Source: Nemertoderma westbladi (taxonomy: Eukaryota; Animalia; Xenacoelomorpha). From it: 40,747 bases of DNA. A program made the position numbers and the translations under genes. Shown here piece by piece: positions 19,951 to 40,747 of this stretch; position 1 is the stretch's first letter, and each line of letters begins with the position of its first letter. The notes under the pieces are model-generated. The model was not told where the DNA came from. It searched no databases and worked only from the letters and a program-made list of their open reading frames with translations. The stretch is from the NCBI GenBank assembly GCA_032718475.1, contig JAUCBJ010000703.1, forward strand, positions 1 to 40,747, written 5' to 3'.

Positions 19951-21978
19951 TGTATTGTGGGGCGAGCCACGAAAGTAAGCGAGCTTAGCAAAAGGGTACC
20001 ACTAACTCAATCGACGTGCCTGTCGTGCTGTTGTGTCCAATCCACGATGAAATCTAACCAAACTTGGTACAAATCTCGTTTGACAAAAATGTGTAAAATA
20101 TTTTCTAAGTTGAATTCACGTGTGGCCTTCGAGAAGCTAAGATAAAAGCAGTTAATTAAGTTGACTACGGTATAAAACAGCATTTTGTCTGTAGTCCTTT
20201 ATTGGAAATTAATTATTTTCATTCTAGTATTAAGATATAAATAATTAAACTGAAAAATTTTACAGCGGTAATCCCCATACCCCATTCCATTGTAGTTTTT
20301 AATTAGTTCAAGTGATTTGCTTTAAGAAATGTGTTTTTAATTGATCTAAAGTAATTAACTTATTAAATTCCCTGTCTATCCACCAACACCCTCGCCTATA
20401 CTTCCAGCTCCCCCATTCAATGGCGTGCTTGCTATTGCCTACCTGGGAACCAGCCTTATTGTTAATTTAACATTGAGTGAGACGAGATATTAATTGAGAT
20501 AGATGATGTGAGAGAGGCATTGAACCAACCACAGTACCCCTTGAGGTCTAAGCACCCCTTAATAAAATAATGGTACTGTAGCGAATAACGAGTTTTATTA
20601 TGTTGCTATATTATTTGTATTATATTAGGTTAAATATAATAGTCGCGGACCTAAACATTTCAGAAATGCGACTAAACTATAAATAAAGTTAAGGAAGAAA
20701 TATTTTAATTAAATTATTTTTAAGAAACTATTTCACTTAGTAAAAAAACCAGGGCCTGGACCTGCTGCTACAAACATATCAAAATTTAAAAAGTATCAAC
20801 TTAAAACCCATATAAAAATATTGTAAGAAACCAATAACCTATATATTTACGGTAAATGCAGACAAATTCACATATAAATTCAAAATAGAATTCCCCTACA
20901 ATGTTTAGTAATATAGCTGTACCGGTAGCAACTGCAGCACTGCAGACCCAGTTACTAAAATATGAAATAAACGCCTTATTATTACAGAACGTCTCTAATT
21001 AAGTTTTGATTACCCTTTCCTTTCAGATTAATTTCCCTTAAATAAATAAAACTAGTTTACAAGATTTATAAAAATGGCCACTCTAGATAATTATTAAGAG
21101 CGCTCCAGATAATTAGGCCCTTATTATTTTTTTCAAAATTTAGGGGCTCCGTATATTTCACACTACCGGTCATTTTACGGTACCGTAAAATGGGGCTACT
21201 TTGCCCAGTGGGGTAACTTTGACCGATCTTTTCTTGGTCAATATAAACAGTATTTGCCACCAATTAATTAATTAATTATTAATTTTTGTACTATTGTGTA
21301 GAACAATAATTGGAGATTATAAGAGTATACCGTTACAGTGATAATTATACACAATAATTTATTTATCATCGTGTTTATGTTGCTCATCAAAAATGACAAA
21401 ATTTTAACCTCCCAAACTTCAACTTGCAAAAATTATTTGTCAACCCCCCACACCATCAAATCAGTTTTATATCAAATTCGCAGTTATTCAGGAATAATAA
21501 AATCAAAGCTTCAGTCCTCAACGATTAACCAACTTGATGTAAAATTTACTTTTATGCAACGACACAATAGCGTATTTACGCTAAATACGCAAATACGCTA
21601 TTAACGACACCCAAATTTTATAAAAGGCGGACAACTTTGCCCACCTTAACATTTAATACAATATAATACTACCGTATGAGACTTGTTGGATGTTAGGCCT
21701 ATATAGTAATTGTAGGTAAAGTAAGTAGGCCCTATGTATGGTTCTGTTTCTTGACAGCTTAATGTTTCAAATCTTTTCAAGGCCTACCGCCTACCTATAC
21801 TGCCATACCGGGCTGACACATCGTTGATTATGTATCTATATTCTATGTACTGTGTGCACTGTTAGTTGTACTGCAGCAGTTGGTAAGTTGGTAGTATTTC
21901 TGTTAGGTGGTGCATATAGTAAGTAGAGTAAGTAAGTAGAGTGAGTAAGTAAGTAGCAGGCCCTTTGTCATTACAATA

Positions 21979-23923
21979 ATGGTTAGAAATAGAAAGCGTA
22001 AACTTGGTTCTAGAAAGTATCGTGACTATACAGATAGTAAGTTGAAGGATGCAGTGGACGCAATGGAGAATGGCTTAAGTAGTCGCCAAGCCGAGGCACA
22101 ATTCCGGATTCCACGTAGAACGATCCTAAATCAACTTCATGGACAACATGGTAAGCAAGTTGGGCATCCAATTATTCTAATGCGATATGAGGAGACATCA
22201 ATTGTCAACCACTTATCCATTTGTGCAGACTGGGGCATGCCCTTATCGATTATGGATTTACGAATCACAGTTAGAAATTATTTGAACCGCTGTGGAAGGA
22301 AAGTAGATGCTTTTATCGATAATCTACCTGGTAGGGAATGGGCACTACTATTTACAGAAAGAAATAAGGATCAGCTTTCACTTCGTCTGTGCCAAAATAT
22401 CAAACGTGCCAGGGCTGCAGTTGGACCGGCAGATATTTCTGCCTACTTTGAACACCTTCAGGTAACTTTAGAGGGGATTCCTGCCACAAATGTCCTTAAT
22501 TATGACGAAACAAACATCACTGATAACCCGGGGTCAAAGAAATTACTGTTTAAAAGAGGAGTTAAATATCCTGAAAAAGTTCAAAATTATTCAAAGGGGG
22601 TGATCAGCCTCATGTTCTCAGGGAGTGCAGATGGGCAACTGTTGGGTGTGTATGTGATCTATAAGTCCAAGCATTTGTGGGCCAACAGGTGTCAAGGGGG
22701 GGCCTCCAAATACACGCTTTGCCCGAACAGTCAGTGGTTGGATGGATGAACCATCCTTTGAGGAGTGGTTCCTGACAATCGTTTTGCCTTGGGCAAAGTC
22801 TCTGGAGGGAAATAAGGTCATAATCGGGGATAATTTATGTGCCCATATAAGTGAGGGGGTCATTCAACAATGTGCTGATAACAACATAAATTTTGTGTTT
22901 CTCCCAAGAAACAGTACCCATCTCACCCAACCTCTAAACGTGGCATTCTTCAGACCACTAAAGTTCTTCAGACCACTAAAGTGTCATTGGCGCCAAATAC
23001 TTGATCAATATAAAACAAAAAATCCAGGTAGCACCTCACTTGAGAAGCAATGTTTCCCTAAACTTATTGACCAGCTCATCCAGAAACTTCATGAGAATGG
23101 AGCAGCAGCAAAGAATCTGAAATCCGGTTTCCGAGCAACTGGTATTGTTCCATTAGATTCGACGCAGGTGTTAAAGAAACTTCCAGGATATACATCATCA
23201 CCCACTCCCCCACCCAATCAGGTGGCACCCACGCCATCTGCTCCTACCCCAGGGGAATCCATACTGGTCGCACAGGCACCAGTGGAATCAACAACATCCA
23301 CACCAGTCATTCTGGCAATGGGGGAACCCATTCCAGTCACTCTATCATCATCGACATCAAGTTCCACTGTACTGCAGTCACCGAGAACCAATGCCAGCAA
23401 ACTTATCTCGAGTTCCCTACTGGAATATCTTCAGCTCTCAAGAAGAAATGCACCCCATTCAAAATCGAAACGTTACAAATTGGATGTACCAGCTGGTAAA
23501 TCAGTGTCTGCCGAAGACATATACATTCAAAGGAAAGATAAGGAGAATCAAAATCGGGGTCGAGGGCGCATTCGTGGTCGTGGTCGGGGTGCTCGAGGAC
23601 GTGGAAATACTCACAGTCAAAGGTTGCAGGGGGTGATTGGGAGAGGGGCAGGAAGGAATTTATTCCCACAACATTCTGATGATGAAATTGTGTTGAGTTC
23701 TGACTCATCTGTTAGCAGTGAATGCTGGCCTGATATCTCAGATAACCATGATGATAGTAATACGTCTGCTGCCACTAATAGGAGTGAGGGGACAATTGCA
23801 GGTATTTGTAATTTTGATGAAATATTACCGGCTAGCCCAATGAGTGGTCACAGCAGTCCTATAGAATTGTTCGCTGATTGGAATTTCGATCTCGAACTCC
23901 TGGATCGTGAACTTGAACTCTAG
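21979..23923 (+). pseudogene. pogo/CENP-B-like transposase (psq-type HTH, CENP-B-type HTH, DDE_1 domain), frameshifted and catalytically altered
   Basis: Motifs: YTDSKLKDAV...LSSRQAEAQFRIPRRT, PGREWALLF, NYDETN, IIGDNLCAH, LPRNSTHLTQPLNV. Deleting one G of the G7 run at 22696-22702 joins the two ORFs as CQGGPPNTRFARTVSGWMD. Confidence 0.9.
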
Positions 23924-24390
23924 CAGCTTATCATTTTGATTTCAAACTCCTGCAATGTGAACCTTAACTCTTTTCGAACTCTTGGATCGTGAACTCGAAC
24001 TCTAGCTTATTGTTTTGATTTTGATCTCCCGCAAAGTGAACTTGAACCTGTTTTCGAACTCTTTGACCGTGAACTTGAACCCTATAGCTTATGCCTATTG
24101 TTTTGATTTTGAACTGCTTGTGCATGGATCGTGAACTTGAACTCTATCTTATCGTTTTGATTTCGAACTCGTGCAATGTGAACTTTAACTCTTTTCGAAC
24201 TCTTGGATCGTGAACTGGAACTCTAGCTTATTGTTTTGATTTTGATCTCCCGCAAAGTGAACTTGAACCTGTTTTCGAACTCTTTGATCGTGATCTTGAA
24301 CTCTATATACCGGTATAGCTTATGCCTATTAGCCTATTGTTTTGATTTTGAACTGCTTGTGCATGGAACATGAACTTGAACTCTAGCATA
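23880..24390. repeat. Degenerate tandem repeat inside the transposon 3' region (GTGAACTTGAACTC-based subunits; ~225-bp higher-order unit x2)
   Basis: The block starting GGATCGTGAACTTGAACTCTA at ~23902 recurs at ~24126 with colinear sub-repeats. Confidence 0.85.
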
Positions 24391-25093
24391 CTGTTTTCTA
24401 AATAACTGAGCTTCAACTTTGTTTATATACTGTAGTTTGTTTATATGCAATATTTCTTATATGAATATGAAATTATATTCTTAATAGTGTTTGTGCATTC
24501 TGGCATTAGTCTGTTGTTAGTATAAGTTCTTTGTTATATATGTTCATATATACAGTAATGCCTCCCATTTCACTATGCGATGGTGAATTGGGTTAGGGTT
24601 TTTTTTTTAATCTTGCCAGTGGGCAAAGTTGTCCTGATTTATGTCAATTTTGCCTAAACTAGTGAACATTCTACAAATTGTAAGACAAAGTTTAGGGAAA
24701 ATATGGCGAAAATGGTGTAATTTGCTATGAAAAAACTGTGATGTGCAAAGTTGTCCACAAGTGGGGCAACTTTGCCCAATGCAGGAATTTTTAAAAAACT
24801 ATATGCAAACACAAAAAAAGCAACATAGTAAAGTTTTATCACATAAAATAATTACTGGAGTACCCTATGGATACATTCATATTGACCTTATTCAAAGTAT
24901 AGACATATTTAACAACCGTCGACGCCATCGACTTTGGGCCAAGTGGGCAAAGTAGCCCCATTTTACAGTACGGTAAATAAATAGAATAGGCCTAGCTTGC
25001 TCGGTATCAATCAATGTATCATAATGATATTATTCCAGGTAAATCGCAGCACAAAGTGTCTAGCATATATAGGGTCTAGTGGGATAGGCCGGG

Positions 25094-25438
25094 TTATTTC
25101 CCTATTTTTCGGAAGTTCCAATGTTGCTGGCACATCGGACATGTCGTATGATTTTTATCCAGCCACTGTTTTAAACAGCAGTTATGGTAACTGTGGTTGC
25201 AGTCCCCCCATACAACAATGCATTCGGTCTTGCCTTCGTCTTTTACCTGACAAGATGCACACGCAGAGGTCATATTATGGCGGCATATCGGGCAGGAATC
25301 GTGCTTGACGTCCCAACTCCACAACGCAACCGCGTTCCATTTCTTCAATGTAAACAACTTCGCGGGCTCGGTAACCTTTACTGGGACATTAGGCCCGTTT
25401 CCTGTTGTAACTCCATCGCCATCACCGTCGATCTCCAT
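25094..25438 (-). CDS. RNF7: RING-box protein, RBX2/RNF7(SAG/ROC2)-like cullin-RING ligase subunit, 114 aa from the first ATG, intronless
   Basis: Contains FTLKKWNAVALWSWDV, CPIC, CASC, ECIVVWGDCNHSYHNCC, CPMC and terminal IGK. The NHSxHNCC, CPxC and IGK features are RBX2-type, not RBX1-type (NHAFHFHC, CPLD). The first ATG (MEIDG) is at 25438. Confidence 0.88.
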   Translation of the reverse strand: MEIDGDGDGVTTGNGPNVPVKVTEPAKLFTLKKWNAVALWSWDVKHDSCPICRHNMTSACASCQVKDEGKTECIVVWGDCNHSYHNCCLKQWLDKNHTTCPMCQQHWNFRKIGK

Positions 25439-26859
25439 CAGGCTGTCAAGGGCAGCCAACACGGCAATAACAGATTCCGGTATATATTTATTTTAAATTT
25501 CAGATTTTAGGTCAGTAGGCTATATACAGCATACAGGCAAAGTTTTACTACAAAATAAATTGCAGTACCGGTACAGTACTGCAGTACTCCCATAGACAGG
25601 TAGATCATACTAATTGCTAAATAGGTGATCCTATCTTGTATTCTACACTCTGCAGGTTGAGGGTAAAACGTAGGGGCCTGCCTACCAGCAGTAAAAATTT
25701 ACAATTTGGGTTGGGTGTCGTTTCAGCATTCCCATAGGGTTAATGTTAAATTAATATGCCAAGAATGTGCCATATGTGCAATGACTATGTGCCAAGAAGT
25801 AAACATTCTACTGTAAACTGTGTTCCTAAATTTAGTTTATTATTTTGGTTAGAAAAGCCTGCCATTCTGACCTGCTACTTTCCTTTAAAATGAACCTTAA
25901 ATGGTAAATTGAATATCGAAATTAAATATTCGCGAAATTAAATTAATATGTTAAAATAGGCTGATCGACATCCCAATTGACTGTTAATTTAGTTTTGAAC
26001 CACTGGTAAATATTTTTTCGTGACAATTATTGCCCCAATTAACAATCGAAAAAATTTAAAAAATAAGACTGCATAGGGAGCCCCCAGTTGAAAATATACT
26101 AGGTAATCAAAAAAGGTTAAAACCGGCCCTGTGTATGTATGTATGTGTGTATGTGTATAGTAACCGTCGACATCATATTCATAAACTCCCAAAATAGTAA
26201 ATCACTCTGAAGTAATTAGCAAATTAGCGGTTGTGTTTTCTGAACCGCAGTAATATTGTACGCGCTTTTGAAGACCTTTAGCAGTTTAACCTGCCAAAAT
26301 TTATATGTCTTTTGGTTTATAAATATACTTTAGAAGAAGACAAATATTTTATACCAATAAACACAACATTAGCAGAAGCCAGCCTAGTGCGCGTCCATTC
26401 ACCCGCTGGATAATCCCGGGAGACTGGATTCTGAGGGCTTAAATTATTATTGCAGTGAAGCTTACTGTATTGTATTATTCGATTGATCGTTAATAATTAA
26501 TTTCTGACTAATATTATTCACTTTCGGGAAATATTAACAGTTCCTTTAGGACGTGGCGCTCTATCTAGATAGACAGAGATATGACTTATACTAATCACAA
26601 CGGTAAGTCGGTAAGGCTTAAGATTCACGTATGAGGCGCATTCTTTAGGAAATGCTTAGTTATCAATCACAATCATGCACACTACCGGTAACACACAATA
26701 CTGCTCACTAATTTGCCGACCGTTAATGAATTTTATCATATATAAAGAGAATAGCAACGGACCAATGTAGTGCTTATCAAATAGCATTAAATTCACTACA
26801 AACCACAACAATATAAGTCGCAATCGCTATATATAACCCGTCTCTCTAACCTGTAGTGT

Positions 26860-27547
26860 ATCAAGAAAATTGGGAAATTTGGGTTCTTTATATATGTTCT
26901 CCAAATAATATTCAACCAAACACAACAGTAAATAGCAGTATAATAATGTATATTGAACCGATAACAACAAAGTATTGAATTGTGAATGAAATTGTTAAGA
27001 ATTGCATTGATATATGAATTGAGTTGATAACAGTCATACGCTCTATAATTTAAGCCTACTAATGTTTCTTCTAAAAGTATGAAACGAATTGACTCTAGAG
27101 CCGTTGTTCCTGGCCTAGACAGCAATAACAACAAAGTATCAAGAAAAAACAGTAAGACTGAACACACTCCTTATGATCGACCGAAAAGCTACACGTCGAC
27201 AGGAAAAATCGCTCTGATTGGCTCAAGCCAAACAAAGAACCATGCGTCCAATGGCTGTTTCCATGTCAGCAACCAGCTGTTAGATGTCGTAATATGAATC
27301 ATCACGGCTAAGCTATGAAAGGTATTTGCCGCATTGCAGGTTTTTTGTCTTACCATGTCCGCTAAAACACGTATATAGCAAAATGACTTTTATGTCCGTT
27401 AAAACACCTGTAACGGTACCTTGAGGGCGAGGGGAATATTTATACAGTTATAGAACCCTTTTAGAGTATTCCAGCGCCTGGGGGGAAACTGGATTGCGAA
27501 GCAAAGGGGCCAGTTATATCCCACATAAGCTTTTACACCGCTCCCAG
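26860..27547 (-). promoter_or_regulatory. Candidate polypurine tract and start of the 3' LTR (U3) of the BEL/Pao element
   Basis: Minus strand reads CTGGGAGCGG then TGTAAAAG (TG at 27537), ~70 bp after the extra ORF's stop. CCAAT motifs lie at ~27217-27221 and ~27248-27252, and minus-strand TATATAAAG at ~26887-26895. No second LTR copy was seen, and the distal end is not defined. Confidence 0.35.
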
Positions 27548-27615
27548 AAAATGGGATTTGAGTCTATAAAATATACAAAATCACAGTTTCTAATATACGT
27601 AAATACTCTAAACAG

Positions 27616-30600
27616 TTAGTCTTTCTTGCGCGGACGGCGTTTACGCAGTTTTTTAAAGCTAGCAAGAGTCCTTTTCTCTTTGGGGCGAGCCACTTTACAA
27701 GGAGGGCTATAACTCCTGGGTGAAGGGTGCAATATGATTGCATCAGAGGGTGTAGGATTATGGTCAGTGTATCCGCCAGTCGAAGTACCGGGTTGATTGA
27801 CGTCAACGTCAGGTGAGAGGGGTCTAACGGCTTTGAGAGCTCGTTTCAAGACAGCCGCTCTTACGGGTCCTTTACGAGTGGTCTGAACGAGGGCCGTGGG
27901 TGGACCATAGACAGTTAGAAACTTCCGGGGTTTAATGGTCCTTTCCAACTCGCGTTCGCGGGCTCGGTATTCGTAAGGCCTTCGATGTACTTCCTGCAAC
28001 TCGGGATGTGAGTTAACAAACAAGTCTCCATAGTCCGGATCCTGACGGATATAATTGATTAAGTTATAGGAATGAAGGTCGCTAGGATTAACACTCCTGA
28101 GAAATTTGCGTACGAATTTAGTTGAAATACATTCTCCGACGCGCTTCAGTAGCTCGTAACTCGATATGCGTGATTTCTGTTCAACAGAAGCGAATAGATA
28201 AGGATGGAACGCATAAACTCCTTCGTAAGCGCGTCCGGGATAATAGCGATGGCGCGAATCACAATGTAAATCAGCGTTCGCTTCCCAAGCTCTGATGTAA
28301 CGCAGTGTGATCATTTCATCTACGCTTTCCAAATCGTGATTAAAAGGGCAGTCGAAACTAGCATGTCCCTTTAGTTGACAATGGTGACATTGAGTCATAA
28401 ATTGAGGGCAAACCGCAAAGATATGCAGGTTATTGAGTCTGCAATATGCGCAATAAATTTCCATAGTCGGTTGTTCTTGGAAATAGGAACAGCGGACGTT
28501 GGTGTCCATGGGCGTATCGTGGTCTCTTGAGGCGCATAACCGACAACGTTGCCTAGAAACATAGTTGGCATGGCGATAATCGTACGCAGTGAGACACTGT
28601 GGGCCTTGATACCATTCTATGATGTAATCGTTGTCGCTGGTCCGGGGCGCGATAGGCTGAATCTCTTCAGATTCTAGACATATTGGTTCGTCTTCCAAGT
28701 GCATAGCTGAAGTAGGCGTGTCTGTCTCTTCAGGTGGACCTATCGTCTGAATTTCCACGACAGAATAACCTGTGGGGATTCGAGGTCTTTGTATAACTGA
28801 GGAGTGCAAGTTCGATATACAAATCTCTTGGAAAATGGCGAATCCAGCGCTATCCAACTTCTCTGCAGCTGAGTTTCTTAGGCTGAGTTTGGTCAAAGCG
28901 CGGTCTTTAAATTGGCTATCCACGTTGCGAAACGGGGTTAAAAATCGCCGGAAACATTCGAAACGGATGAATTTATTATGTTCATCTAGCTTGGCGAGTT
29001 TGGTCCCAAGTATTAATGGATGGGCACGTATAGTACGACTGCACACATCGGCTAGCCAACCGGCAAGTGCGGTGTTTTCAAAGATCGTGTATATAGCTAA
29101 GGAGGGACGGAGTGGAACACTCATGAAGCTATACACGGCGCCAGGTGCGGTCAATGGTCCATCAAAGTATAATCGAGAATAATGGTCTCCGTATACCTGT
29201 TGATAGTTAATGGGATTTCCGACCTTGAAATTCCATCCGTATTCCTGAAAGGCAAGATGTCCGATGGAAGTTCGTTGCACCTTGGTAATGTTGCTAGACG
29301 TATTAGCATACATGGTGCGGAAGAAACCTCGACCTTCTGCCCAGGGAGCAATCAGCTGAGTATCAACGAAAGGGTATGGAATGTCCTCCATATTCCGAAA
29401 GTCGTTTTGGAGATCTCCATAAACAGCTGAGCCGATTTTAAGGATTCTTTCGTTGAACAACATCTCGAGTACGGGCTGGGGTAACATCGATCCATCGATG
29501 CCCATGGCCAGTTTGCGTTCGGTGTCAATGACGTAACGCTGCGCGAGTTCGAATTGTCCATGTCGGAGATTATTTTGTGTTTCGGTGAGAGTTTCAAAAG
29601 AATAATCAATCAAGTCGGAACACGCTCGAGTAAACACGTGGGTAGAACCAGCTAATCCGCGGATGTGGATCATGCGCGTAGTTCCTAGCTCTCTGACCGG
29701 AACGCTACCTTCATTATCGTAGGTGACAACTCCATACATCTCGATAACATTAAGAGTTTCATTCCACTCCTTGGTGGGGTTCTCTAGGGTCATCCCTACT
29801 GGATGCCACAAGGTGGCGCATTGGTTAGCGTCAGGGAGATCACTATACTTCATATGCCGAGTGGTATACGTCTCCACAGTTCCATATCTTTGTATTTTCT
29901 CTTCTTCAAATAATACATCTAGATTCCAATGGACTAATCGAGTTTTAATAAATCCATCGAGGTTATAAGGAGTTTCTATATCTTTCTCGATTCGCGAAAT
30001 GTTATATGGTTTTCTAAATGAGTTTACCTTTACTAACTGATCCAGATGTTTCTGCAATTGTTCGAGTTCGACAATGTCTAGAGGATTTATTAGTGGTAGA
30101 AACTTTAAATCATGTGTCGGGTCTTCTGGTTTTACCATATAATATTGAGTCAGATTAACGTAATAAGGGTGGTCTTTAATCCCGTAAAACGAGTTCTGTA
30201 AAGGTCTAGCGCGTATGTTGACATCGTGTACCATACGACGGACAAGATCCGCTCGATTGTCCGGAGGTTCAACGAGTATACCGTCAACACGAGCGGCCTC
30301 GATCGGCGGACGCTGTAACATAGGGGCGTCAGCGATAAGGTTTTGCGATCCTGTACTGATATCAACCGGTTGAGGTTGTATCGTCGCGAAGAGCTTGTCT
30401 CCGAAATGTGGGATCATAGAGGGATGACGAACGGTTTTAGAGTAGAGGTCCGTCATGAGAATTTGAGCTTCAGGTTGGGCTAAAGCGGCTTCTTCTCTTT
30501 CTTCCAGTTTCGTGTGTTTCTCTTCGATTAGATTTTCTTCCGCTTGTCTCTGTAAGCGTTCATCTAAAAATTCTTGTAGAGAATACGTGCGTCCAAGCTC

Positions 30601-30909
30601 GATGTCTTCCTCGAGGTTTTGGATTTCTCTATCGAACTGTGGCAAGGCTAACTCCTTCACCGATTGGACTTGTTGTTGTAATTTACGTTTCTCTAAACAA
30701 TCTTGTGTTCCCTTTCCGATTTTCTGTCGAATGGCGTCTAAAGCGTTTCTTATAACACTCTCCTCGACTTCCGTGGCGGGTTGTATCGGGTTTAATCCTG
30801 GACGATTGTAAGGATCAAAGGGCGATATTAGCTGCCCGATATTAGTGCTACGATATCTTAATCGACTAGAATTGTTAACGGATCTGAATTTTACAGATTT
30901 TAATAAATA
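27616..30909 (-). CDS. Accessory ORF downstream of pol: DEDDy (WRN/EXD/Mut-7-type) 3'-5' exonuclease-like domain, Cys/His zinc knuckles and basic C-terminus
   Basis: The listed ORF is 27616..30660 with a GTG start, but the frame stays open to 30909. ExoI-like VVTYDNEG; ExoII-like LPQPVLEMLFNERILKIGSAVYGDLQNDF; FVDTQLIA; SIGHLA; ExoIII-like VPLRPSLAIYTIFE. Knuckle CHHCQLKGHASFDC plus two variant knuckles. Confidence 0.75.
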   Translation of the reverse strand, partial: YLLKSVKFRSVNNSSRLRYRSTNIGQLISPFDPYNRPGLNPIQPATEVEESVIRNALDAIRQKIGKGTQDCLEKRKLQQQVQSVKELALPQFDREIQNLEEDIELGRTYSLQEFLDERLQRQAEENLIEEKHTKLEEREEAALAQPEAQILMTDLYSKTVRHPSMIPHFGDKLFATIQPQPVDISTGSQNLIADAPMLQRPPIEAARVDGILVEPPDNRADLVRRMVHDVNIRARPLQNSFYGIKDHPYYVNLTQYYMVKPEDPTHDLKFLPLINPLDIVELEQLQKHLDQLVKVNSFRKPYNISRIEKDIETPYNLDGFIKTRLVHWNLDVLFEEEKIQRYGTVETYTTRHMKYSDLPDANQCATLWHPVGMTLENPTKEWNETLNVIEMYGVVTYDNEGSVPVRELGTTRMIHIRGLAGSTHVFTRACSDLIDYSFETLTETQNNLRHGQFELAQRYVIDTERKLAMGIDGSMLPQPVLEMLFNERILKIGSAVYGDLQNDFRNMEDIPYPFVDTQLIAPWAEGRGFFRTMYANTSSNITKVQRTSIGHLAFQEYGWNFKVGNPINYQQVYGDHYSRLYFDGPLTAPGAVYSFMSVPLRPSLAIYTIFENTALAGWLADVCSRTIRAHPLILGTKLAKLDEHNKFIRFECFRRFLTPFRNVDSQFKDRALTKLSLRNSAAEKLDSAGFAIFQEICISNLHSSVIQRPRIPTGYSVVEIQTIGPPEETDTPTSAMHLEDEPICLESEEIQPIAPRTSDNDYIIEWYQGPQCLTAYDYRHANYVSRQRCRLCASRDHDTPMDTNVRCSYFQEQPTMEIYCAYCRLNNLHIFAVCPQFMTQCHHCQLKGHASFDCPFNHDLESVDEMITLRYIRAWEANADLHCDSRHRYYPGRAYEGVYAFHPYLFASVEQKSRISSYELLKRVGECISTKFVRKFLRSVNPSDLHSYNLINYIRQDPDYGDLFVNSHPELQEVHRRPYEYRARERELERTIKPRKFLTVYGPPTALVQTTRKGPVRAAVLKRALKAVRPLSPDVDVNQPGTSTGGYTDHNPTPSDAIILHPSPRSYSPPCKVARPKEKRTLASFKKLRKRRPRKKD

Positions 30910-31580
30910 TTAAATTAATATTTAAGATGGGCACCGATTTATTCCAGAACTTGTCTGGGGACGTTAACCATTGATTCTAGAATTTGTCTTTCAAGTATAT
31001 CGGTGGGTGCCACGATATCTTAATCGACTAGAATTACAGATGGTCAAAAGATTTAACAGATTTATTTGCGTTTTACGCTACTGTTAGAGGGACATCACGC
31101 TACTATATGTATTATTTAATATAAGGTAGAAGAGCAATATCGCACGAAGCAATGTCAGTGTGAAGAGGCAAGTCGTTTCCAAGGTCTACCCAGAGCTTGG
31201 CTTAGCCGAGACACGAGGATCTGAACTTTGCATTCCTAATACTCTGCCTACCGATAATACTTGAATATAGTAGTGGCTTTATTGTACTTTAATAAGTACG
31301 GACATTTCATCTTACTGTAGTCACGTATTTATAATATGATACGGACAGTAAGGAAAGAGAAAAAATTATTTCTCGCCGTCGCACTAAATATATATTATAA
31401 GTAATTACGTACGTAATAAACACTAATATATTGCACTAATCTACTAAATAATCACTAAAATAGCATTCTACTAAATAAAATTGAATAAAAACGATTATAA
31501 TAAAGTACATAATAAAGTTCACATACAAAAATATAACAAAATATATAAAATAATATAGTCATACACCCACTCCAGACGTA

Positions 31581-34500
31581 TCACATTAGGGAGTCCCTAG
31601 ATGTTTGAGGAATTAGGGAGGTGGTCGTGGGAAGAGTGTCTTGCCTTCCATAGTTTCCAGAGAGTTCTCTGTCTCTTTCCAGTAAACATAAACGACCAAC
31701 TGGGCGATTGAGTTGTTGCGTCTCAAAGATGATGCCTGGCTTCTTGAAGTTACGCCGCATGATGATGAGTTCTACTGAGCGTACTAAACCATCATCTGAA
31801 ATGTGTGTCTCGATGATACGACCTGTCTGCCACCGTTTACGTGGGAGGTCTGGATCTACAATAAGCACCATATCTCCGGCGCTGACGTTTTCTTGCTGCG
31901 CAAACCACTTAGTTCGAAGTTGTAGCGTGGGCAGATAATGTTTCTCGAAATGGTCAGCGAAACGACGGGATAGCAACTGCATAAGTTGCCAAGTTCGACG
32001 GCAGTATTCGTCTCCGTCGGCAATCTCCGATCGTGGGAGCATGGCTACGGGTTTCTTCAGTAGGAAGTGCGCGGGTGTTAGCGCTTCCAGGGAATCGGGA
32101 CTCGATGAGACTGGCATAAGCGGTCTCTCGTTGAGATAGGCAGCGATTTCCTCCATTAACGTCCGCAAAAGTTCGTCGGTGAGATACGCGCGGCATGGCA
32201 CTATAAAGTGAAATGCGGTTTTGACACTTCGAATTAATCTCTCCCAACTTCCTCCCCACCAAGGGGCGTCGGCGGCGTTGAAGGTCCAGCTAGACGCTGT
32301 TATCCTTAGCTGGTCGTCCACCTGTCTTTGGTTCCAGTCCTTCACGTAAGCCTGTATCTCGTTGTTGGCACCTATGAAGTTCGTTCCTTTATCCGATCTC
32401 ATGGTATTACTCGTCCCGAAGCGAGCGATCTGTCGTCGTAAACTTAAGACGAAGCTGTTGGTAGATAGATCGTTCACCATATCGAGATGGATGGCTCTAC
32501 AAGTCATGCACACGAAGATGACACACCATCTCTTGACTATAGTCCTCGCACGATATACTTCAATAGGGCCAAATAAATCTACACCAGTATTAGTAAAAGG
32601 TGGTTCATAGAAGCTTACTCGTTCCCTAGGTAATTCTGCCTCTCGCTGTGTTAAAGGCCTACTGAATGCTTTCCTACAGGGTATGCAGTTCCTAAGAACT
32701 TGGTTCAGAGCTCTACGGGGTTTATCAAAATAATAGCGAGTTCGAATTTCGCTAAGAATTCGTTCTCTACCAGCATGGTAAAGTTTACTGTGAACGTCTA
32801 CAATCATCTTGATTTGTACTTCAAGATTTCTAATAAGTATGGGGAATTTGGTGTCAAAGGATAAGGGCGCGTTGGTGAGTCTTCCTCCAACACGTATTAA
32901 CCCATCTATCATTGTGCTCGAGAATCGATCCCTTAAGCGCATCTGCGGATTTCTCAACAACAGGAAGTACTTTTCGGAATCCTCATAGCATTGCAGGAGT
33001 CTCAGTATCTGTTTATTTGTTTCTTCATACTCCTGGTGACTGATTTTCTCTTTTAGAAAACGATCAGATATCTTATATTTGGGTAAATTCTTAATAACAT
33101 GAACTTGTGCAGATGTCAATGGAGCGTGATCACTAGTGGTCTTCGTCCTGGAGTAGTGATGATGGAAACATCGTCTTAAATATGTGACGGCCTTACAGAG
33201 CCGATTCCAGGAACTGTAATGATGCATTGCTCTCTGCAGCATGGGTGAGATTCCTTGCGAGACGTCTGGTATTCCAGATTTCCAATCTCTATCTCTAATT
33301 TCCACAACAGACTTATTTGTGTTGAGGGATTGTGGATCCGAAACATCATTCCCGGAAGTATGTAATACAGATAGATCGATAGTCGGTTTAAATAACTTCG
33401 ATTTACTCGCCCGGGTTTTAGGTTTGACGGTCTCCGCTCCCTTGGCTTGTCTAATCTCTGCCGTAGTAAGGTGAGGAGGCCATTCATCCTCTTCCTTGCT
33501 CAGGAAGTCGGGTCCACCCAACCAATCTGGAGTATCTATCAGTTCCTGTGGAGTTGCTCCCCTGGAGGCGATATCGGCTGGATTAATCGTACCAGGGCAA
33601 TGTCTCCATTGATCTATCTTTGTGCGACTAAGAATAATAGCTACTCGGTTAGTAACAAAAACGCTAAACTGACAGACTTCATTGGTTAGATACTCCAACA
33701 CGAGTAAAGCGTCGGTCCAATAAACCGTTTTCTCCAGTTGATAGTCGATTTGTTCCGTTACGTTCCGGCCGATGGCTGTAGCGTATAAAGCTGCCTTTAA
33801 CTCCGCTCGAGGAACCTTTAGCTTGTTGTTAATCAATGCCTTAGAGGTAACCAAGGCGACTTTGATTCCATCCGGAGTTTCGACTCGCAGATATGCTACT
33901 ATACCTATTCCCATGTCGCTGGCGTCTCCAAACACATGGAGTTGATAGGAATACGTAGGAAGAACATGGCCAAAATATGCACGGGAAATTATAAAGTTCT
34001 CGATGGCAGGTAGAGAATCTTCCCATTTCATCCATTTCTTCAACAATTCTCCCTTAAGCGTATCGTCCCATGAGTGGTTTTCAAGCCACATCTGTTGTAC
34101 TAAACTCCGAGCAATCAATATAACTGGGCTAATAAATCCCAATGGGTCGAAATAAGTGCTCAGGATACTTAAACAAATCCGTTTGGTCCGAACTGGATTA
34201 TCTCGCTGTTTCAACTGAAAAAACAGGATGTCTCTTTCAGTGTCCCACTTCAAGCCTAGCGTCTTGGTTTCAGGAAGATCGTCCTTTATTAAGTCTAGGT
34301 CTTTCGCTCCGCGATCTTCTACCGGTATGGCTTCCAGAAACTCGCGGGAGTTGCTAGTGAATTTCGTCAGTCGAAATCCACCTCTTTTCAAACACTCTAC
34401 CGTTCCTTTCGCGACAGCTATGGCTTCTTCTACTGATGGAAGGGACCTTAAATTGTCGTCCATGTATATATTGCGTTTTATGTTGTCTATCACTTCTTTG

Positions 34501-35230
34501 GAGAAGGAGTCTCGGTTATCATTAGCAGTGGTTCGCACCACGGAGCAGGCGTTGGAAGGGCTTGATATGATCCCAAAAGCCTGGATGGTCATCCAGTACT
34601 CTACCGGTTTCTGGTTGAGGTCTCCTTCAGGCCACCACAGAAATCTCAGGCTGTCTCTATCTCTATCCAGCGCCTTGACTTGTAAGAACATTCCTTCTAT
34701 ATCAGAGGCGAACGCGATGGAATATTGTCTTAATCTTAATAGTATTCCCAACAAAGATTGGAGTAAGTTGGGTCCTGGTAACAACTCGGAATTGAGGGAT
34801 TGGCCCATATATAGCGCAGAGCCATCGAATACGACTCGGACTTCATGGGGTTTACCGGGTTTGGGAACGTAATGATGTGTTAAGTAATACGTTCTCTCCG
34901 TCACTGGTGTTCCTTCCGGTACTCGCTCCGCGTATCCCTTTGTTATAAATTTCTTCAGCTGAGTTTGGTACATTTCTTTCGCTGAAGCATAAGCTGTAAG
35001 GCGTCGATATAATTGAGCGATTCTTTTCTCTGCCAAGGGTCTGTTATTTATAAATCTAGGTTCTCGTTTTCGAAATGGTAGGCCGATTTCATACCTACCT
35101 TGGTCCTTTAAAAAACGTGTAGTTGTTTCCTGGATTTGCTTGGCTCTTTCTTCTTCTATCGATAGAGCCTTATCATATGAATTGGGCTCTACCAGTTCCT
35201 TTGTAAGCGATGGGTTCCGATGGGTGAATC
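31581..35230 (-). CDS. pol: BEL/Pao pol: reverse transcriptase, RNase H, integrase
   Basis: RT: VRVVFDGS, LNSELLPGPNL, DIEGMFLQV, YMDD. RNase H region: LHVFGDAS, PRAEL, YWTD, NPADIASRG. Integrase: HSKLYHAG..CIPC, GVDLFGP, SDKGTNF, GGSWERLIRSVK, PRKRWQTGRI. The frame extends upstream of 35036 through GRYEIGLPF to ~35230. Confidence 0.96.
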
Positions 35231-36315
35231 AGTTGACAAAGGTTCACCTGACTTTTCCAAATTTGGTTTTCTGTAAGTAGGTCGATTGTGTTCTCTTCAT
35301 CGAAGAGTTGGTAGATGTCGTCATTATCTGAGGAGTATGGTGTTCCCTCAGTTAGTTCGTCCACCTCACTGCTCTCCACTTCCCAATCGTGTACTTGGTA
35401 TGTGTGTTCTTGTGGCATTCTCTCTTCGAGAGTCCTGCGGGAAGGGCCAGTAAAGTACCAACCTACTCTAGTTCTTACTGCATAGGTTTGCAGTGGCTGT
35501 GGTTGAGCAGGCCGTTTCTCCAATGTTTCGAGCGCCTCATGCGCGTTCTGGCCGATGAGGATTTGCACTCCAGGATAATCTGTCTGGAATCGAGGTATCT
35601 CAAGATGTTGGATGCTCTCATCCTCGTCCCAATTATAAAGGTCTGCTTGAGTAGTAGCGAAGTTCTTTATAGCCACCATTTTTACTGACCTTATACCTTG
35701 TGTTCCTAACTTATCCTGGGGGGTGGACAACACACCTACATAGTAATCTGCCGTTAAGGTAGATTTCCAAACCTGCATAATTCCTGACATATTCAATTTA
35801 GTCCGGAATTTGGGTTGTCCAGCAAAGATATCTTCGGCTAATTCTTGATCGATGAATGTTCCTGTGCTGCCAGAGTCAAGGAGGGCGTTCACTATGTAAC
35901 TTTTATTAAGACCATAAACTCTTACCTGCACCACAGGAAATTCTCTGATTCCTACGTTGGAAGTTGGAGCTTTCCAAGATGGTTGTTTGGCAAAAGTAGT
36001 TGGGGGAAACTCATCGTTGGTGACCTTTTCATAAGTAAGTGCTCGATACACTGCGGTATTGATTAGATAACAGGATTCGTTGGCGTCGGAGAATTCGTCA
36101 GTATAGAATCCTTCCATCTCAGACTCCTGATCAGTGTCATTTACATCACTGAATTGGACATGTAGTTCGGGCTCACTTACCTGACTCTGTTTGTCTCGTT
36201 CGAACTCACTGTGTAACAAAATGTGATGTTTCGCGCCACACTTTGCACACTTTATGTCGGAGTAACAGGTTCGCCGCTGGTGTCCTGGTCTGAGGCAATT
36301 ATAGCATAACCGCCT
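35173..36315 (-). CDS. BEL/Pao polyprotein middle segment: gag zinc knuckles 2-3 and aspartic protease
   Basis: Upstream of the listed start (36219) the frame reads LCYNCLRPGHQRRTCYSDIKCAKCGAKHHILLH. Protease motifs are ALLDSGS and ILIGQN. Confidence 0.92.
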   Translation of the reverse strand, partial: RRLCYNCLRPGHQRRTCYSDIKCAKCGAKHHILLHSEFERDKQSQVSEPELHVQFSDVNDTDQESEMEGFYTDEFSDANESCYLINTAVYRALTYEKVTNDEFPPTTFAKQPSWKAPTSNVGIREFPVVQVRVYGLNKSYIVNALLDSGSTGTFIDQELAEDIFAGQPKFRTKLNMSGIMQVWKSTLTADYYVGVLSTPQDKLGTQGIRSVKMVAIKNFATTQADLYNWDEDESIQHLEIPRFQTDYPGVQILIGQNAHEALETLEKRPAQPQPLQTYAVRTRVGWYFTGPSRRTLEERMPQEHTYQVHDWEVESSEVDELTEGTPYSSDNDDIYQLFDEENTIDLLTENQIWKSQVNLCQLIHPSEPIAYKGTGRAQFI

Positions 36316-39300
36316 GTACGTCTGTCTACAAGGGATTTCTTTAGAAATTCAGCACACGCACTCAAACGGTGGGTCCCGTCGCACAGCGCACAGTTAGGTT
36401 TTATGTTACTCACCTTACCTTGGGTAACTTGATGCACTCTCGTTTTTTCTTCGGGTTTTCTTCGGTGCATTCTGTTAGGAGACTGAGGGGGGGTCTTGGC
36501 AACCTGTTCTCTCCTATCGTTGTTTCGAGCCTTGTATTTACTTACATCTTTTGAGGTTTTGTCAACGTAGTAAGATCGCTCAGTATCTTTCCCGCTGTCC
36601 TCTTCTTGAGAAACTTGGCTTTCGCCGTCGTCAGTGTAACACACCGGTGTTATTCTTCTCCTAGAAGCGGGTTTCTCACTTACCTTATTTTCCGCTGTTT
36701 TCTCTCTGGACTGCTTGATGAGTTGTAGTTTTACCTCACCATCTAAGAAGGACATGAGATCAGCCATGGTAGGACTTCGTCGTTGTTGTTCATTCATGTA
36801 CAACACTTTCTTGTCCCAGCGGGTACATACTCCACCCTTTGGTAAAGTAGAGACTACGGCTCCAATAACCATTGAACTCTGATATTCATGAGACTTACCT
36901 AACCAGTCCAATTGTCTACAGATCTCTTGAATCTCATCGGAAAACTCTATAATCCCGCTACTAAGGAAGTGTCGGGGGGCTACTAATTTTGCATACAAAT
37001 ACTTAGCTATGTTATCCTTGTTACCATACCTGATGTTTAATGTATCCCATACTTGTCTTAATCCTTCTGGATGTTCAATAAACTTTAACGCCATTAACTT
37101 GGGAGGTCCTTCCAAGCACTTGATGAGGAACCTAAGTTTCTCTCCGTTAGATAGTACAGAGTTCTGTATGCTGTCTTTGTAATATTCGTTGAAAGGTAAC
37201 CATTTCATCTCATCTCCATTGAATTTGACGATCTCTCCCACTTTGACCGCTTGGCGGGCTTCTGTTCTAGCCATCTGACGCGTAAAGCTTTCTTGGGCCA
37301 TCGTGTTATTTAATATCGAATTATCGGTATATAAATTTCTCGGATCATTATCAGGTCTATAGGGAATATCATTAATAACAGGTCTATAATCACCCTTAAT
37401 AGGGTTTGCTATAGGAGTTTCTACTTCACTAGCAGTATAGATGCGTGTAGGCTCCACACCTTGCGCATGTAATACTTCAGACCTAACAGGTTGACACAAT
37501 GTTACAGGGGGTATTGGTATGCCCTTTTGTATATTGACTAATTTGTCGCGTTCTAGCGCGATACTTTGCTGCACTTCTTGCAATTCGGCCCTACTTTCCC
37601 TTACTGTTCCCTTAAGCTGGTGGACAGTCTCCTGCATCTGTCCGAGCAGGAGATTCATCCCCCGCCGTCCCTCTTCTACCCACTCAACCGCCGAAGCGGG
37701 AGTCGCCAACATTGTAGCGGGCTGACGCGGGACGACGGGAGACAAATCTTTGATTTCTCTCTCAGCTTCCAGGACAGGGATATTCTCATGGACTGTTCTA
37801 CCGGGTACAGGCAGTGTAGTACTATGTAAAGGGAATTTAGAGTTAAGCTCTAGAAGTACTGGAGTTTCTAGCACAGGGGTGACCTTGGGAATGACAGGCC
37901 TAATTATTTCAGGCTCATCAACTATAGTGGGGAGTCTTTTGACCTTAATAATTTGGTCTGTAGGTTCTATACTACTTAAGTCTGTGCTAGCTAGTTGTCT
38001 TCTAACAGCTGGGGGCAAATCAGGCAATTTGTGTCGGTGAGATGTTTTTCTACGCCTGCTTAGACGAGATCTATTCCCTCCGCCTTCAGGGTCGGTGGTT
38101 TCACTTTCTTCCGATGATGTGTATCCCTGGCGTTTGGGAGTAGATTTTCTCATCATCTGCATGTGACTAGCAGTTAACTGTTTATTTATGTTGTCTTGCG
38201 TCTCTTGCAGATTTTCCAACTCCAGTTGGGTAGTCTCCTCAGACGCTCTCTGTTCTGCGTCTGCCAATGCCATTGCTGCTGCTGCTTTGGCTGCTTCCAC
38301 TGTCGCTGCCGCTTTTACTTCTGCCTCTTCCACTGCCGCTGCTGCCTTTGCCGCTGCTACTGCTGCTACTGCCTTTGCCGCTTCCACTGCCGCTACCGCT
38401 TTTGCCTCTTCCACTGACGCTGCCGCTTTCGCCGCTGCTACTGCCCTTTTGTCCTCTATCCGCCTTCTCTTTACCTGTTCTTCTTGGACTCTAGCGAGGC
38501 GGAGTTTTTCATCAAATTCTGCTTGGTTAGCAGCTAACATTTCAGCATCGATTGAATCTAACACACGCTGGGTTCCTTCACTATTGGGGGAAAGTCCAGA
38601 CAGCCGTCTCCTCAATTCTTGGTCTCCTAGGAATCGCTGATAGTCGGACAGATAAATGTCTATGGCGTCTCTCGTTCGTGGTTTCTCTGAGGTCTCTTCG
38701 CCTTCCACTTGAGAAAGGGTGGCATCGGTTGGTTCTTCATAAGTTAGTCTCTCAGACAGCTGGGATTTCCACTGGTCTGTTTCTTGGATTTGGAGACCTA
38801 CCCGCTGGAACCAAGTTTTGACAGCAACCTGCAGTGACGTGTCCTGTCTTCTTTTGGAAGTTTCCTCAAAGGCTGATAGGATTAGTCGAATGCGTAGGGT
38901 TCTTTCGCGTACTTGATATAGCAGTTCTTCCTGCTCTTGAGGTCCTTGGGGTTGTCGAAACAGTTGTTCTTCTAATCTCTCTAAGGAGTCGAAGAATCCC
39001 TGCACATATCCTGCTGCCGACCTCTTCCAAACAGCTGGATCCATCGTATCTTTAGCCACTCCCATCCTGTGTATATCTTCCCAAGTAGCCTCGGACAGAT
39101 CTAACGGGAGTCCGGGTCCGGGAAAGTTCCATTGTGACTCGACAATAGACATCAATTCTTCCCTGGCGTATCCTGCATAATCATCTTGGGTCGCTCGCTT
39201 ATTTCTCGCCCAATCTGCTTGATGTTCCTCCACCGCAATCAATATAGTTGTTAGCACTGCGGCAGGAAGGGTGAGAAGGGGGTCCGAGTAGGCTTTAGTC

Positions 39301-39623
39301 GTCATCTGCAATCCGCGTTCGGGGGTCAGTTCGACAGTATCCGAACTACTGGAGTTATCTGATCGCTGGGGATAAGTTTCTTGACTAGGCTGTTGCTGCT
39401 GTGGGACAGCTGCTTCCTGGTTCCGTTTGACTTGGGCCCGAGTGCCGATGATGGACCTACGGTGTTGGATTAGCTTAGGGTCCGATATCACTACTGGAGG
39501 GATGACTTTTCTTTCAGTAGGAGGTGAGCTGAACTCCTTTCTTAAACGCTCCACACTCCTATCTGTGTCACAGATGGTTGTATCGATTAGACTGTCTGAC
39601 AGGTTTTGCTGAGTGTCAGACAT
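36252..39623 (-). CDS. gag: BEL/Pao gag (long N-terminal extension, Ala-rich repeats, DUF1759-like capsid region, first zinc knuckle)
   Basis: ATG-initiated 1123-aa ORF with FNGDEMKWLPF, EKLRFLIKCLEGPP, WDTLNIRYG and CALCDGTHRLSAC. Confidence 0.9.
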   Translation of the reverse strand: MSDTQQNLSDSLIDTTICDTDRSVERLRKEFSSPPTERKVIPPVVISDPKLIQHRRSIIGTRAQVKRNQEAAVPQQQQPSQETYPQRSDNSSSSDTVELTPERGLQMTTKAYSDPLLTLPAAVLTTILIAVEEHQADWARNKRATQDDYAGYAREELMSIVESQWNFPGPGLPLDLSEATWEDIHRMGVAKDTMDPAVWKRSAAGYVQGFFDSLERLEEQLFRQPQGPQEQEELLYQVRERTLRIRLILSAFEETSKRRQDTSLQVAVKTWFQRVGLQIQETDQWKSQLSERLTYEEPTDATLSQVEGEETSEKPRTRDAIDIYLSDYQRFLGDQELRRRLSGLSPNSEGTQRVLDSIDAEMLAANQAEFDEKLRLARVQEEQVKRRRIEDKRAVAAAKAAASVEEAKAVAAVEAAKAVAAVAAAKAAAAVEEAEVKAAATVEAAKAAAAMALADAEQRASEETTQLELENLQETQDNINKQLTASHMQMMRKSTPKRQGYTSSEESETTDPEGGGNRSRLSRRRKTSHRHKLPDLPPAVRRQLASTDLSSIEPTDQIIKVKRLPTIVDEPEIIRPVIPKVTPVLETPVLLELNSKFPLHSTTLPVPGRTVHENIPVLEAEREIKDLSPVVPRQPATMLATPASAVEWVEEGRRGMNLLLGQMQETVHQLKGTVRESRAELQEVQQSIALERDKLVNIQKGIPIPPVTLCQPVRSEVLHAQGVEPTRIYTASEVETPIANPIKGDYRPVINDIPYRPDNDPRNLYTDNSILNNTMAQESFTRQMARTEARQAVKVGEIVKFNGDEMKWLPFNEYYKDSIQNSVLSNGEKLRFLIKCLEGPPKLMALKFIEHPEGLRQVWDTLNIRYGNKDNIAKYLYAKLVAPRHFLSSGIIEFSDEIQEICRQLDWLGKSHEYQSSMVIGAVVSTLPKGGVCTRWDKKVLYMNEQQRRSPTMADLMSFLDGEVKLQLIKQSREKTAENKVSEKPASRRRITPVCYTDDGESQVSQEEDSGKDTERSYYVDKTSKDVSKYKARNNDRREQVAKTPPQSPNRMHRRKPEEKTRVHQVTQGKVSNIKPNCALCDGTHRLSACAEFLKKSLVDRRTGGYAIIASDQDTSGEPVTPT

Positions 39624-39699
39624 GTTTAGCTATACAGTTGAATGCCTACTGCTATAGTTACAGTTAAAGCAAGTCTAGTAATTCAGTATGACCGTTGGC

Positions 39700-39975
39700 C
39701 TAGTACCGGTAATTTATTGCAGTATATTAGAATACCGGTATGCACTTATAGTATATATAAGTATTGTAAACTAGGTTTGTCACAGAGTACCGGTATATAA
39801 ATTTAGCACAAATATATATAAATATATAATAGGCCTATCGTGAATACCGGTATACAGCGTACACTTATAGTATATAAGTATAATTCTGGACTAGAATTAT
39901 TACAGAATACCGGTATGATTTCAGCTCAAATTTATAGAAATAAATATAATAAGCCTATGGTAAATACCGGTATGT
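39700..39975. repeat. Degenerate tandem repeat in the retrotransposon 5' leader with six TACCGGTA cores
   Basis: TACCGGTA occurs at ~39704, 39733, 39788, 39845, 39908 and 39965. CACTTATAGTATATA and AAATAT-AAT-GCCTAT segments repeat with a ~115-120 bp period. Confidence 0.75.
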
Positions 39976-40747
39976 CAATTATTTTAGAATAATTGATTTT
40001 CTGAATATTTTAGGGTTACTTGGTTACTTTAACTTACTTTGTTACCGCTATTTAAGCAGTAGTCCAACTGATTTTGAGACCTAGTTGTTATATGGCAGGC
40101 CTACTATTTATAAATCGTTTGAGTTGATTTATAATAGATATATACCCGTTTAAATGGGTTTTTTGTCAATATTTGAAATAAATGTTATTATTTCTGGGGG
40201 TCACTACACAGAAGCTGTGCACTCTCAGTGAAGTGCTATTTATTGGACACTAAAACAGATAATTCTAATTTACCTAAGTTACTTAGTACTACAAATTACT
40301 TACGATACGGGTGAGATTAAATCTCTAATTAAACACAACAAAAATATTACGTACGAATTTTTAGGGTAATTTTACAGGAAGTCTACAAACCAGCCTAACA
40401 AAGGGTTAGATTTCTGGTTATTACAACGGACAGGGTACTACGGTATTTGAAAATAATAAGTAGTAGTAGATACACTGCGTTGTCCAGATAGGAAAATACC
40501 ACCGCCTGACGACCTATAACCGTATCGCTATAGGTACTACGTTATGTATCACGGAGTGTTCCTACCTAGAAGTTAATTACCGCGGACTACCAGATCCAGC
40601 GTGCCTATTAACCACTTTACAACACAAATATACTGCCTACACACTAATTACTTCGGAAAGCACTGTACACTAAACCCTAAATTAGGTACAAGTACTGGTA
40701 CAACAAATAATCATGTGGCAACAGGCAACGCCAAAGGTTGGTAAGAG

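Follow-up and report, generated by a model that had tools for sequence, protein, structure and literature searches.

A BEL/Pao retrotransposon of Nemertoderma westbladi carries, inside one high-copy unit and 672 bp behind pol, a third open reading frame (ORF3) whose predicted product joins a DEDDy-type, RNase D-like exonuclease domain to three zinc-knuckle motifs. The element lies in contig JAUCBJ010000703.1, of which we analysed a stretch of 40,747 nt (hereafter, the window). Four long minus-strand frames stand there in series (39629-36252, 36348-35173, 35228-31581 and 30909-27616). These frames and the spacer that precedes the last of them are as follows (E, expectation value; GC, guanine plus cytosine).

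36252-39629, minus strand: gag-like frame of 1125 codons with an ATG at its 5′ end and the BEL/Pao domain DUF1759 (Pfam PF03564, E 3e-12)
35173-36348, minus strand: second frame, with the remaining nucleocapsid zinc knuckles and an aspartic protease (weak matches to zf-CCHC, E 0.085, and Asp_protease_2, E 0.012)
31581-35228, minus strand: pol, with reverse transcriptase (YMDD), Peptidase_A17/RNase H region, integrase and DUF5641 (Pfam PF05380, E 5.5e-36; PF18701, E 7.1e-20; PF17921, E 2.4e-7)
30910-31580, minus strand: AT-rich, high-copy spacer between pol and ORF3 (GC 0.33), with a purine tract and TGT at 31573-31563, TATAAA at 31333 and AATAAA at 31283, 31066 and 30943
27616-30909, minus strand: ORF3, 1097 codons from stop to stop, with its first in-frame ATG at 30456 (codon 152; 946 aa) and a candidate splice acceptor ending at 30798

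In a Pfam scan, the markers of BEL/Pao elements were found in the expected order (gag with DUF1759, protease, reverse transcriptase, Peptidase_A17/RNase H, integrase, DUF5641), which supports the identity of the carrier as a BEL/Pao retrotransposon (Belpaoviridae) and bears out the assignment made in an initial annotation of this DNA. The second frame has 97 nt in common with gag and 56 nt with pol. In the present copy, gag-pol is divided among three frames; the breaks, at 36252-36348 and 35173-35228, are either programmed or acquired. The high-copy unit is at least 14.5 kb long.

A chance origin of ORF3 can be ruled out. The five other frames contain 52-78 stops across the same interval, the chance of a run of this length at the same base composition is ∼1e-26, and the GC content at the three codon positions (0.54/0.39/0.43) resembles that of pol (0.50/0.40/0.45), compared to 0.33-0.37 in non-coding neighbours. 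The initial annotation had described an uninterrupted frame of about 1100 codons, some 670 bp past the pol stop, with GC raised relative to the flanks and no likeness to env. All of this was recovered, with the frame beginning 672 bp from the pol stop (31581) on the same strand. The peak 19-residue hydropathy mean in ORF3 is only 1.12, and hence the protein appears to have no membrane anchor; with neither a hydrophobic anchor nor a Pfam match, an env gene is ruled out as its identity. Pfam likewise gave no match in the regions before and after the exonuclease-like and zinc-knuckle domains described below. The first 151 codons contain no ATG, and the CAG at 30798, in a pyrimidine-rich context, may serve as a splice acceptor.

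Linkage of ORF3 to the element is evident from contigs of public sequencing runs (X1-X5) aligned to the window, where depth is not copy number and the records listed comprise 24 of 637 loose ends and 32 of ∼28,500 pieces. Summed contig depth in X1 and X3 is 18-21 at 25118-25676 and then 1e5-1e6 from ∼26230 to the window end, with bins of 103,000-300,000 in ORF3, 220,000-740,000 in pol and the same order in gag. Single X3 contigs reach depths of 7,329 and 14,039 in ORF3 and 5,742 in pol, compared to 19-21 in the flank. ORF3 is therefore at repeat-level depth like pol, which excludes the single-copy host exon that the initial annotation had put forward as a counter-reading. ORF3 could instead be part of another high-copy repeat that abuts the present BEL/Pao copy by chance. 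No single listed contig bridges the entire link from pol to ORF3, and the 5′ end of the element and the partner of its long terminal repeat (LTR) lie beyond the window. We nevertheless regard such an accident as quite improbable, as ORF3 shares strand and codon-position GC with pol, depth at the listed sites between 30528 and 31659 never leaves the range 1e4-1e6 (X2, X3), high-depth collinear contigs span the pol stop (31442-31694) and the spacer (30925-31261), and none of the listed loose ends falls between 30800 and 31260. No splice joint is among the joints listed from these contigs.

The exact position of ORF3 within the element depends on where the LTR begins. A single-copy contig (depth 19.3) covers 25984-26257 without differences; taken with the 31-letter word size, this would place the 3′ end of the element near 26232, at a CA, and yields one candidate.

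26232-27537, minus strand: candidate 3′ LTR, opening with TGT after a purine tract at 27545 and closing with CA near 26232, where repeat depth stops

A purine tract followed by TGT occurs twice, however. The tract at 27545 gives a 1.3-kb LTR, near the usual 0.2-1.2 kb (PMC8742986), and leaves ORF3 in the env slot. The tract at 31573 gives a 5.3-kb LTR that would run from 31565, right after pol, to near 26232 and contain ORF3, which in the 5′ LTR would be the first gene on the RNA. The signals behind the pol stop are in LTR-like order (purine tract and TGT, TATAAA at 31333, AATAAA at 31283), and neither AATAAA nor ATTAAA occurs in the 1.4 kb after ORF3. A gene in both LTRs should be seen at double depth, yet none of X1, X3 and X5 shows ORF3 at two times the depth of pol, a comparison confounded by divergence. 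For this reason we favour the env slot, which is the probable location, and consider the 5.3-kb LTR unlikely. The env position proposed in the initial annotation is likely, though deduced rather than read from an LTR pair.

Two further observations concern the edges of ORF3. A 29-nt direct repeat (97%) lies at its 5′ edge, with copies at 30845-30873 and 31007-31035, 162 bp apart; an X4 contig match ends nearby at 30838, and this may reflect a duplication polymorphism. At the other end, X4 depth is 7,000-48,000 at 27124-27939, compared to 30-1,000 over most of ORF3. A commoner relative in X4 has the end of ORF3 and the candidate polypurine-tract region in common with the present element.

The central part of ORF3 contains the motif series of DEDDy exonucleases.

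29029-29790, minus strand: putative DEDDy-type exonuclease-like domain (motifs, NCBIfam, profile comparison, ESM Atlas, seeded model)
29718-29716, 29712-29710, 29415-29413, 29091-29089 and 29079-29077, minus strand: residues D398, E400, D499, Y607 and E611 of this domain, which also includes D516

Five motifs follow one another in ORF3: TYDNEG (29724-29707), LPQPVLEM (29484), FVDTQLIA (29370), SIGHLA (29268) and PLRPSLAIYTIFE (29115-29077). The initial annotation had named them in this order, and all were located where it had them, with D398/E400 at 29718-29710. Both NCBIfam matches to the domain (2/2) are ribonuclease D (E 0.0046 and 0.033). Against a reference profile of bacterial PF01612 domains (31 sequences, RNase D for the most part), the domain reaches 16.4 bits, compared to 3.4 for the best of 500 shuffles. 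With hhalign, an RNase D-type profile gave a probability of 91% (E 1e-6) over 51 columns of the ExoII region, a level reached by 0/40 shuffles; a WRN-like profile gave 12.5% (E 0.0023) and a short RNase D profile 0.9%. In the ESM Atlas, PF01612 was assigned to 24 of 30 ORF3 hits (score 0.92). Finally, D398 and E400 are invariant in a 34-row alignment, in which D-x-E, K491, D499 and D516 fall in invariant columns without adjustment. Of the group initially proposed (WRN, EXD1/EXD2, Nibbler, Egalitarian and RNase D), the DEDDy type stands, and the bacterial RNase D profile outperforms the WRN-like one, but EXD1, EXD2, Nibbler and Egalitarian cannot be told apart as relatives.

Structure prediction, which the initial annotation had suggested as a check, gave a mixed outcome. 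The single-sequence AlphaFold model of the domain has a predicted local distance difference test score (pLDDT) of 29.5. A second model, from an alignment to which 32 bacterial DEDDy proteins had been added as seeds and which had been trimmed to bring ExoIII into register, is DEDD-like, with a pLDDT of 60, a predicted template modelling score of 0.59 and D398/E400 on strand 1; it is circular and shows compatibility only. When this circular model was compared with DEDD structures, diDNase, Pol I exonuclease, RNase D, WRN and EXD1 were tied (Z 11.5-10.7), the top match having Z 11.5 and a root-mean-square deviation of 3.8 over 149 aligned residues; Egalitarian was also among the fold matches. Foldseek of the same model found nothing in PDB at E ≤ 0.001 (best 1.3e-3, EXD2) and one match among viral structures, a Pandoravirus 3′-5′ exonuclease (4.6e-4). 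No HRDC domain was matched by Pfam in ORF3 or P0001, and residues 641-780 of ORF3 are unreliable in the model.

A single relative of ORF3, P0001, was found with HMMER among 1.84 billion representatives (648 aa, E 2.4e-6). It is a single-member cluster from a 9.4-kb ENA contig and has the same layout as ORF3, namely an exonuclease-like domain, a linker, three knuckles and a basic tail. At ∼27% identity, P0001 retains D398, E400, D499, D516, Y607 and the unusual E611; 11 of 28 aligned acidic residues are identical. The persistence of the active-site positions in so distant a homologue, odd final E included, suggests that the site is functional or at any rate binds metal. Compared region by region, the two proteins score above 1000/1000 shuffles in ExoII, in ExoIII and in the knuckles. 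P0001 also scores 18.0 bits against the mostly-RNase D profile (best shuffle 7.0), and PF01612 was assigned to 25 of its 30 ESM Atlas hits (0.94), with a shared-feature count at the level of true members. Word-based protein searches returned no ORF3 relatives among 2411 and 2403 candidates and only P0001 itself among 7986. Scans of metagenome and viral contigs contained no relative either; there was no match in plasmids and three chance matches in phages (E 6).

Downstream of the domain, ORF3 has two further features.

28348-28545, minus strand: three zinc-knuckle or knuckle-like motifs, residues 789-854 (zf-CCHC_3, E 0.0058), with three counterparts in P0001
27619-27939, minus strand: basic, proline-rich C-terminal tail (23% K+R) with an end resembling a nuclear localization signal (NLS); the P0001 tail is also basic

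One knuckle is canonical CCHC (residues 841-854) and the other two are knuckle-like (789-807 and 820-834), in keeping with the exonuclease-like plus zinc-knuckle protein first described. The P0001 knuckles match structures of HIV nucleocapsid (NC) (E 1e-4) and Air2 (E 0.064), and those of ORF3 do not particularly resemble knuckles two and three of the element's own gag. The motifs likely bind single-stranded RNA, and the basic tails of ORF3 and P0001 suggest a nuclear location.

Sequence differences between copies give modest support for selection on the ORF3 protein. We considered 38 differences, the best-supported sites listed from about 2,400 and 340 in two comparisons; they are a small selected subset and mix private changes of the present copy with subfamily differences. 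In ORF3, 11 of 23 are synonymous, compared to 22-28% expected (p 0.006-0.035), and in pol 11 of 15.

Several observations weigh against reading ORF3 as an active exonuclease carried by the element. ExoIII is Y607-x3-E611, with E rather than D as the last carboxylate, and Y607/E611 line up with Y-x3-D only once the reference sequences are trimmed. ORF3 has ∼30 extra residues after ExoI and ∼28 before ExoIII. Profile matches are confined to the ExoII region; the ExoI half alone is not significant against P0001 (312/1000 shuffles score as high). Shared ESM features number 161-163 of 256 for ORF3, under the 170 usual for genuine members of the family. ORF3 as a whole is without a Pfam match, and PDB sequence searches with the domain returned chance hits only and no solved structure. 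The seeded model shows only that the domain tolerates the DEDD fold. Finally, the synonymous excess is weaker in ORF3 than in pol, and there are no paired LTRs within the window. Despite these points, we hold it very probable from the motifs and profiles that the central domain of ORF3 is of the DEDDy type.

In DEDDy enzymes, four carboxylates hold two metals and a tyrosine orients the water for 3′-5′ cleavage. ORF3, as the third gene of a high-copy BEL/Pao retrotransposon, would by analogy encode a metal-dependent 3′-5′ exoribonuclease with a DEDDy (RNase D-like) fold and an apparently intact two-metal site made up of D398, E400, D499 and E611 with Y607. Its three zinc knuckles likely grip single-stranded RNA, and the enzyme would then trim RNA 3′ ends in a way that favours survival of the element. 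Because the first 151 codons lack an ATG, we presume that ORF3 is expressed separately, whether through an RNA of its own or a spliced one, and the basic tail points to the nucleus as its site of action. The substrates are the least certain step. Our preferred candidates are the RNAs that set off or direct silencing of the element (its aberrant or antisense transcripts and the precursors of small RNAs), since a separately made and probably nuclear protein suits a trans-acting role better than one inside the particle. On present evidence, we give about an even chance that ORF3 is an active, trans-acting exoribonuclease that removes such RNAs. A bolder version, in which a giant BEL/Pao lineage with its own old D-E-D-E/Y exonuclease and triple-knuckle family suppresses small-RNA silencing by trimming guide or precursor RNAs, with the gene perhaps riding in a 5-kb LTR, would account for the very high copy number of the family but strikes us as doubtful.

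The enzyme could also be active on the element's own replication intermediates, that is, genomic RNA 3′ ends, primer tRNA or cDNA, perhaps in proofreading. The likeness of the knuckles to retroviral nucleocapsid (P0001 vs HIV NC, E 1e-4) is in line with this, as are the tied fold matches of the seeded model, which include the exonucleases of WRN and Pol I, and the absence of AATAAA/ATTAAA from the 1.4 kb after ORF3, and 3′-end processing of element RNAs has been proposed for comparable genes of rotifers (PMC5408684). However, ORF3 is a separate frame with no evident route into the particle, its tail is NLS-like, and the genes on record for BEL/Pao elements are gag, pol and, in some cases, env, with no others (PMC8742986). 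We judge a replication role unlikely.

We are similarly sceptical of an escort function, in which a domain with little or no catalytic activity would bind the RNA of the element and accompany it, for instance out of the nucleus as CERV of the Cer1 element does. The E in place of D in ExoIII and the extra residues around ExoI and ExoIII fit such a loss of activity, EXD1 and Egalitarian are among the fold matches of the seeded model, and precedents exist: Maelstrom and EXD1 are named as inactive DEDD derivatives in PMC5408684, and CERV, which an LTR element makes from a spliced RNA, is described as a nuclear export factor in PMC10309623. Yet four carboxylates and the tyrosine are kept at ∼27% identity between ORF3 and P0001, and dead enzymes need not keep them.

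Genes of this kind have been reported before. Rodriguez, Kenefick and Arkhipova (2017) described DEDDy ORF3s of RNase D type, in which the DEDD motif has become DEED, from Juno/Vesta LTR elements and Terminons of rotifers; according to that paper (PMC5408684), the carriers are bdelloid Juno1/2 and Vesta2/5, the frame is shared with Athena/Terminon elements, and a role in RNA 3′-end processing or silencing is suggested but unproven, activity having yet to be demonstrated. Reviews repeat this account (PMC5718144, PMC6338049, PMC6431247). Like the rotifer genes, ORF3 is a non-env enzymatic gene downstream of pol with an RNase D-like DEDDy domain, no anchor and one altered carboxylate. It differs in its motif, which is D-E-D-E with Y rather than the DEED given for the rotifer genes, in its BEL/Pao carrier, in protein size and layout (∼950-1100 aa with three knuckles and a basic tail) and in belonging to a very high-copy element, whereas the rotifer families are said there to be low copy. 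No rotifer sequences were among the relatives returned by the ORF3 protein searches. By this comparison ORF3 resembles the rotifer genes in kind, and the novelty of architecture implied by the initial annotation was overstated, as DEDDy ORF3s in LTR retrotransposons had been published. What is new is the BEL/Pao carrier, the divergent D-E-D-E/Y family with a triple knuckle, the high copy number and the length of at least 14.5 kb.

Other known systems differ more. The present element shares with Belpaoviridae (Semotivirus) the gag-PR-RT-RH-IN order (protease, reverse transcriptase, RNase H, integrase), the marker domains and a third frame behind pol. In the profile of the International Committee on Taxonomy of Viruses (PMC8742986), however, third genes are given as env-like only and elements as 4.2-10 kb long. 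De la Chaux and Wagner, who surveyed 7,861 BEL/Pao elements, never write "exonuclease" in their main text (PMC3118150), and searches of open full text listed no paper on an exonuclease frame in BEL/Pao. With cellular DEDDy proteins (RNase D, Rrp6, WRN-exo, EXD1/EXD2, Nibbler/Mut-7, Egalitarian, NrnC/diDNase), ORF3 shares the ExoI D-x-E, the K..G...D ExoII region, DTQ, the PL...Y-x3-acid ExoIII and, in the seeded model, a compatible fold; it is only 13-22% identical to them and differs in the E at the last position, two insertions, fused knuckles and the lack of a Pfam HRDC match. CERV of C. elegans Cer1 is likewise a non-env accessory protein of an LTR element, nuclear and from a spliced RNA, as ORF3 may be. 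In contrast to ORF3, whose function is predicted, that of CERV is demonstrated, its carrier is Gypsy-type, and its abstract (PMC10309623) mentions no nuclease domain.

Our findings extend exonuclease cargo from rotifer elements to BEL/Pao and suggest that LTR elements have repeatedly gained an RNA 3′-end enzyme. They bear on the open question of whether animal retrotransposons encode counter-defence against piRNA silencing, and ORF3, which is intact, high-copy and conserved at its variant active site, lends itself to a test of activity.

The 5′ part of the element adds two features.

39630-40747, minus strand: high-copy 5′ leader with a single ATG in 1.1 kb, the element continuing past the window end
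40733: TGG-starting motif, a putative primer-binding-site candidate

In Belpaoviridae, the primer-binding site follows the 5′ LTR and is for tRNA-Arg or tRNA-Gly. A search of the window for tRNA genes found none, and nothing in 24000-40747 matched Rfam. The gag frame is unusually long (1125 codons) and contains an alanine-rich tandem repeat with a 27-nt period at 38255-38455. Joints that each omit ∼1.7 kb of pol (31716-33431 and 33616-35318) were seen in several runs, most strongly in X4, and probably represent internally deleted, non-autonomous derivatives.

Outside the element, the window contains remnants of other mobile sequences and long satellites.

25094-25438, minus strand: intronless gene for a 114-aa RING-H2 protein of Rbx1/Rbx2 type (Pfam zf-rbx1, E 2.6e-16)
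24618-24965: short element with inverted motifs that include GGGCAAAGT
21949-23923, plus strand: Pogo/Tigger-like DDE_1 transposase with a helix-turn-helix, occupying two frames (Pfam E 5.6e-12); tandem repeats of 79-82 bp come next
14223-15104, plus strand: non-LTR reverse transcriptase fragment (RVT_1, E 1.3e-9; DUF6451)
2273-3253, minus strand: 326-codon frame with an N-terminal C2H2 finger-like motif and acidic repeats, possibly of DNA transposon origin
1-1900, 4433-5416, 8833-11659 and 17706-18772: satellites with units of 9, 54, 37 and 13 bp, respectively

The RING-H2 gene is at single-copy depth (18-21) in X1 and X3 and at ∼1,075 in X4; a retrocopy, or mobile cargo that multiplied in another population, could explain this. 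The short element at 24618-24965 is missing from one X4 contig (joint 24488-24739), a MITE-like (miniature inverted-repeat transposable element) insertion polymorphism. The 9-bp satellite array changes strand at position 100.

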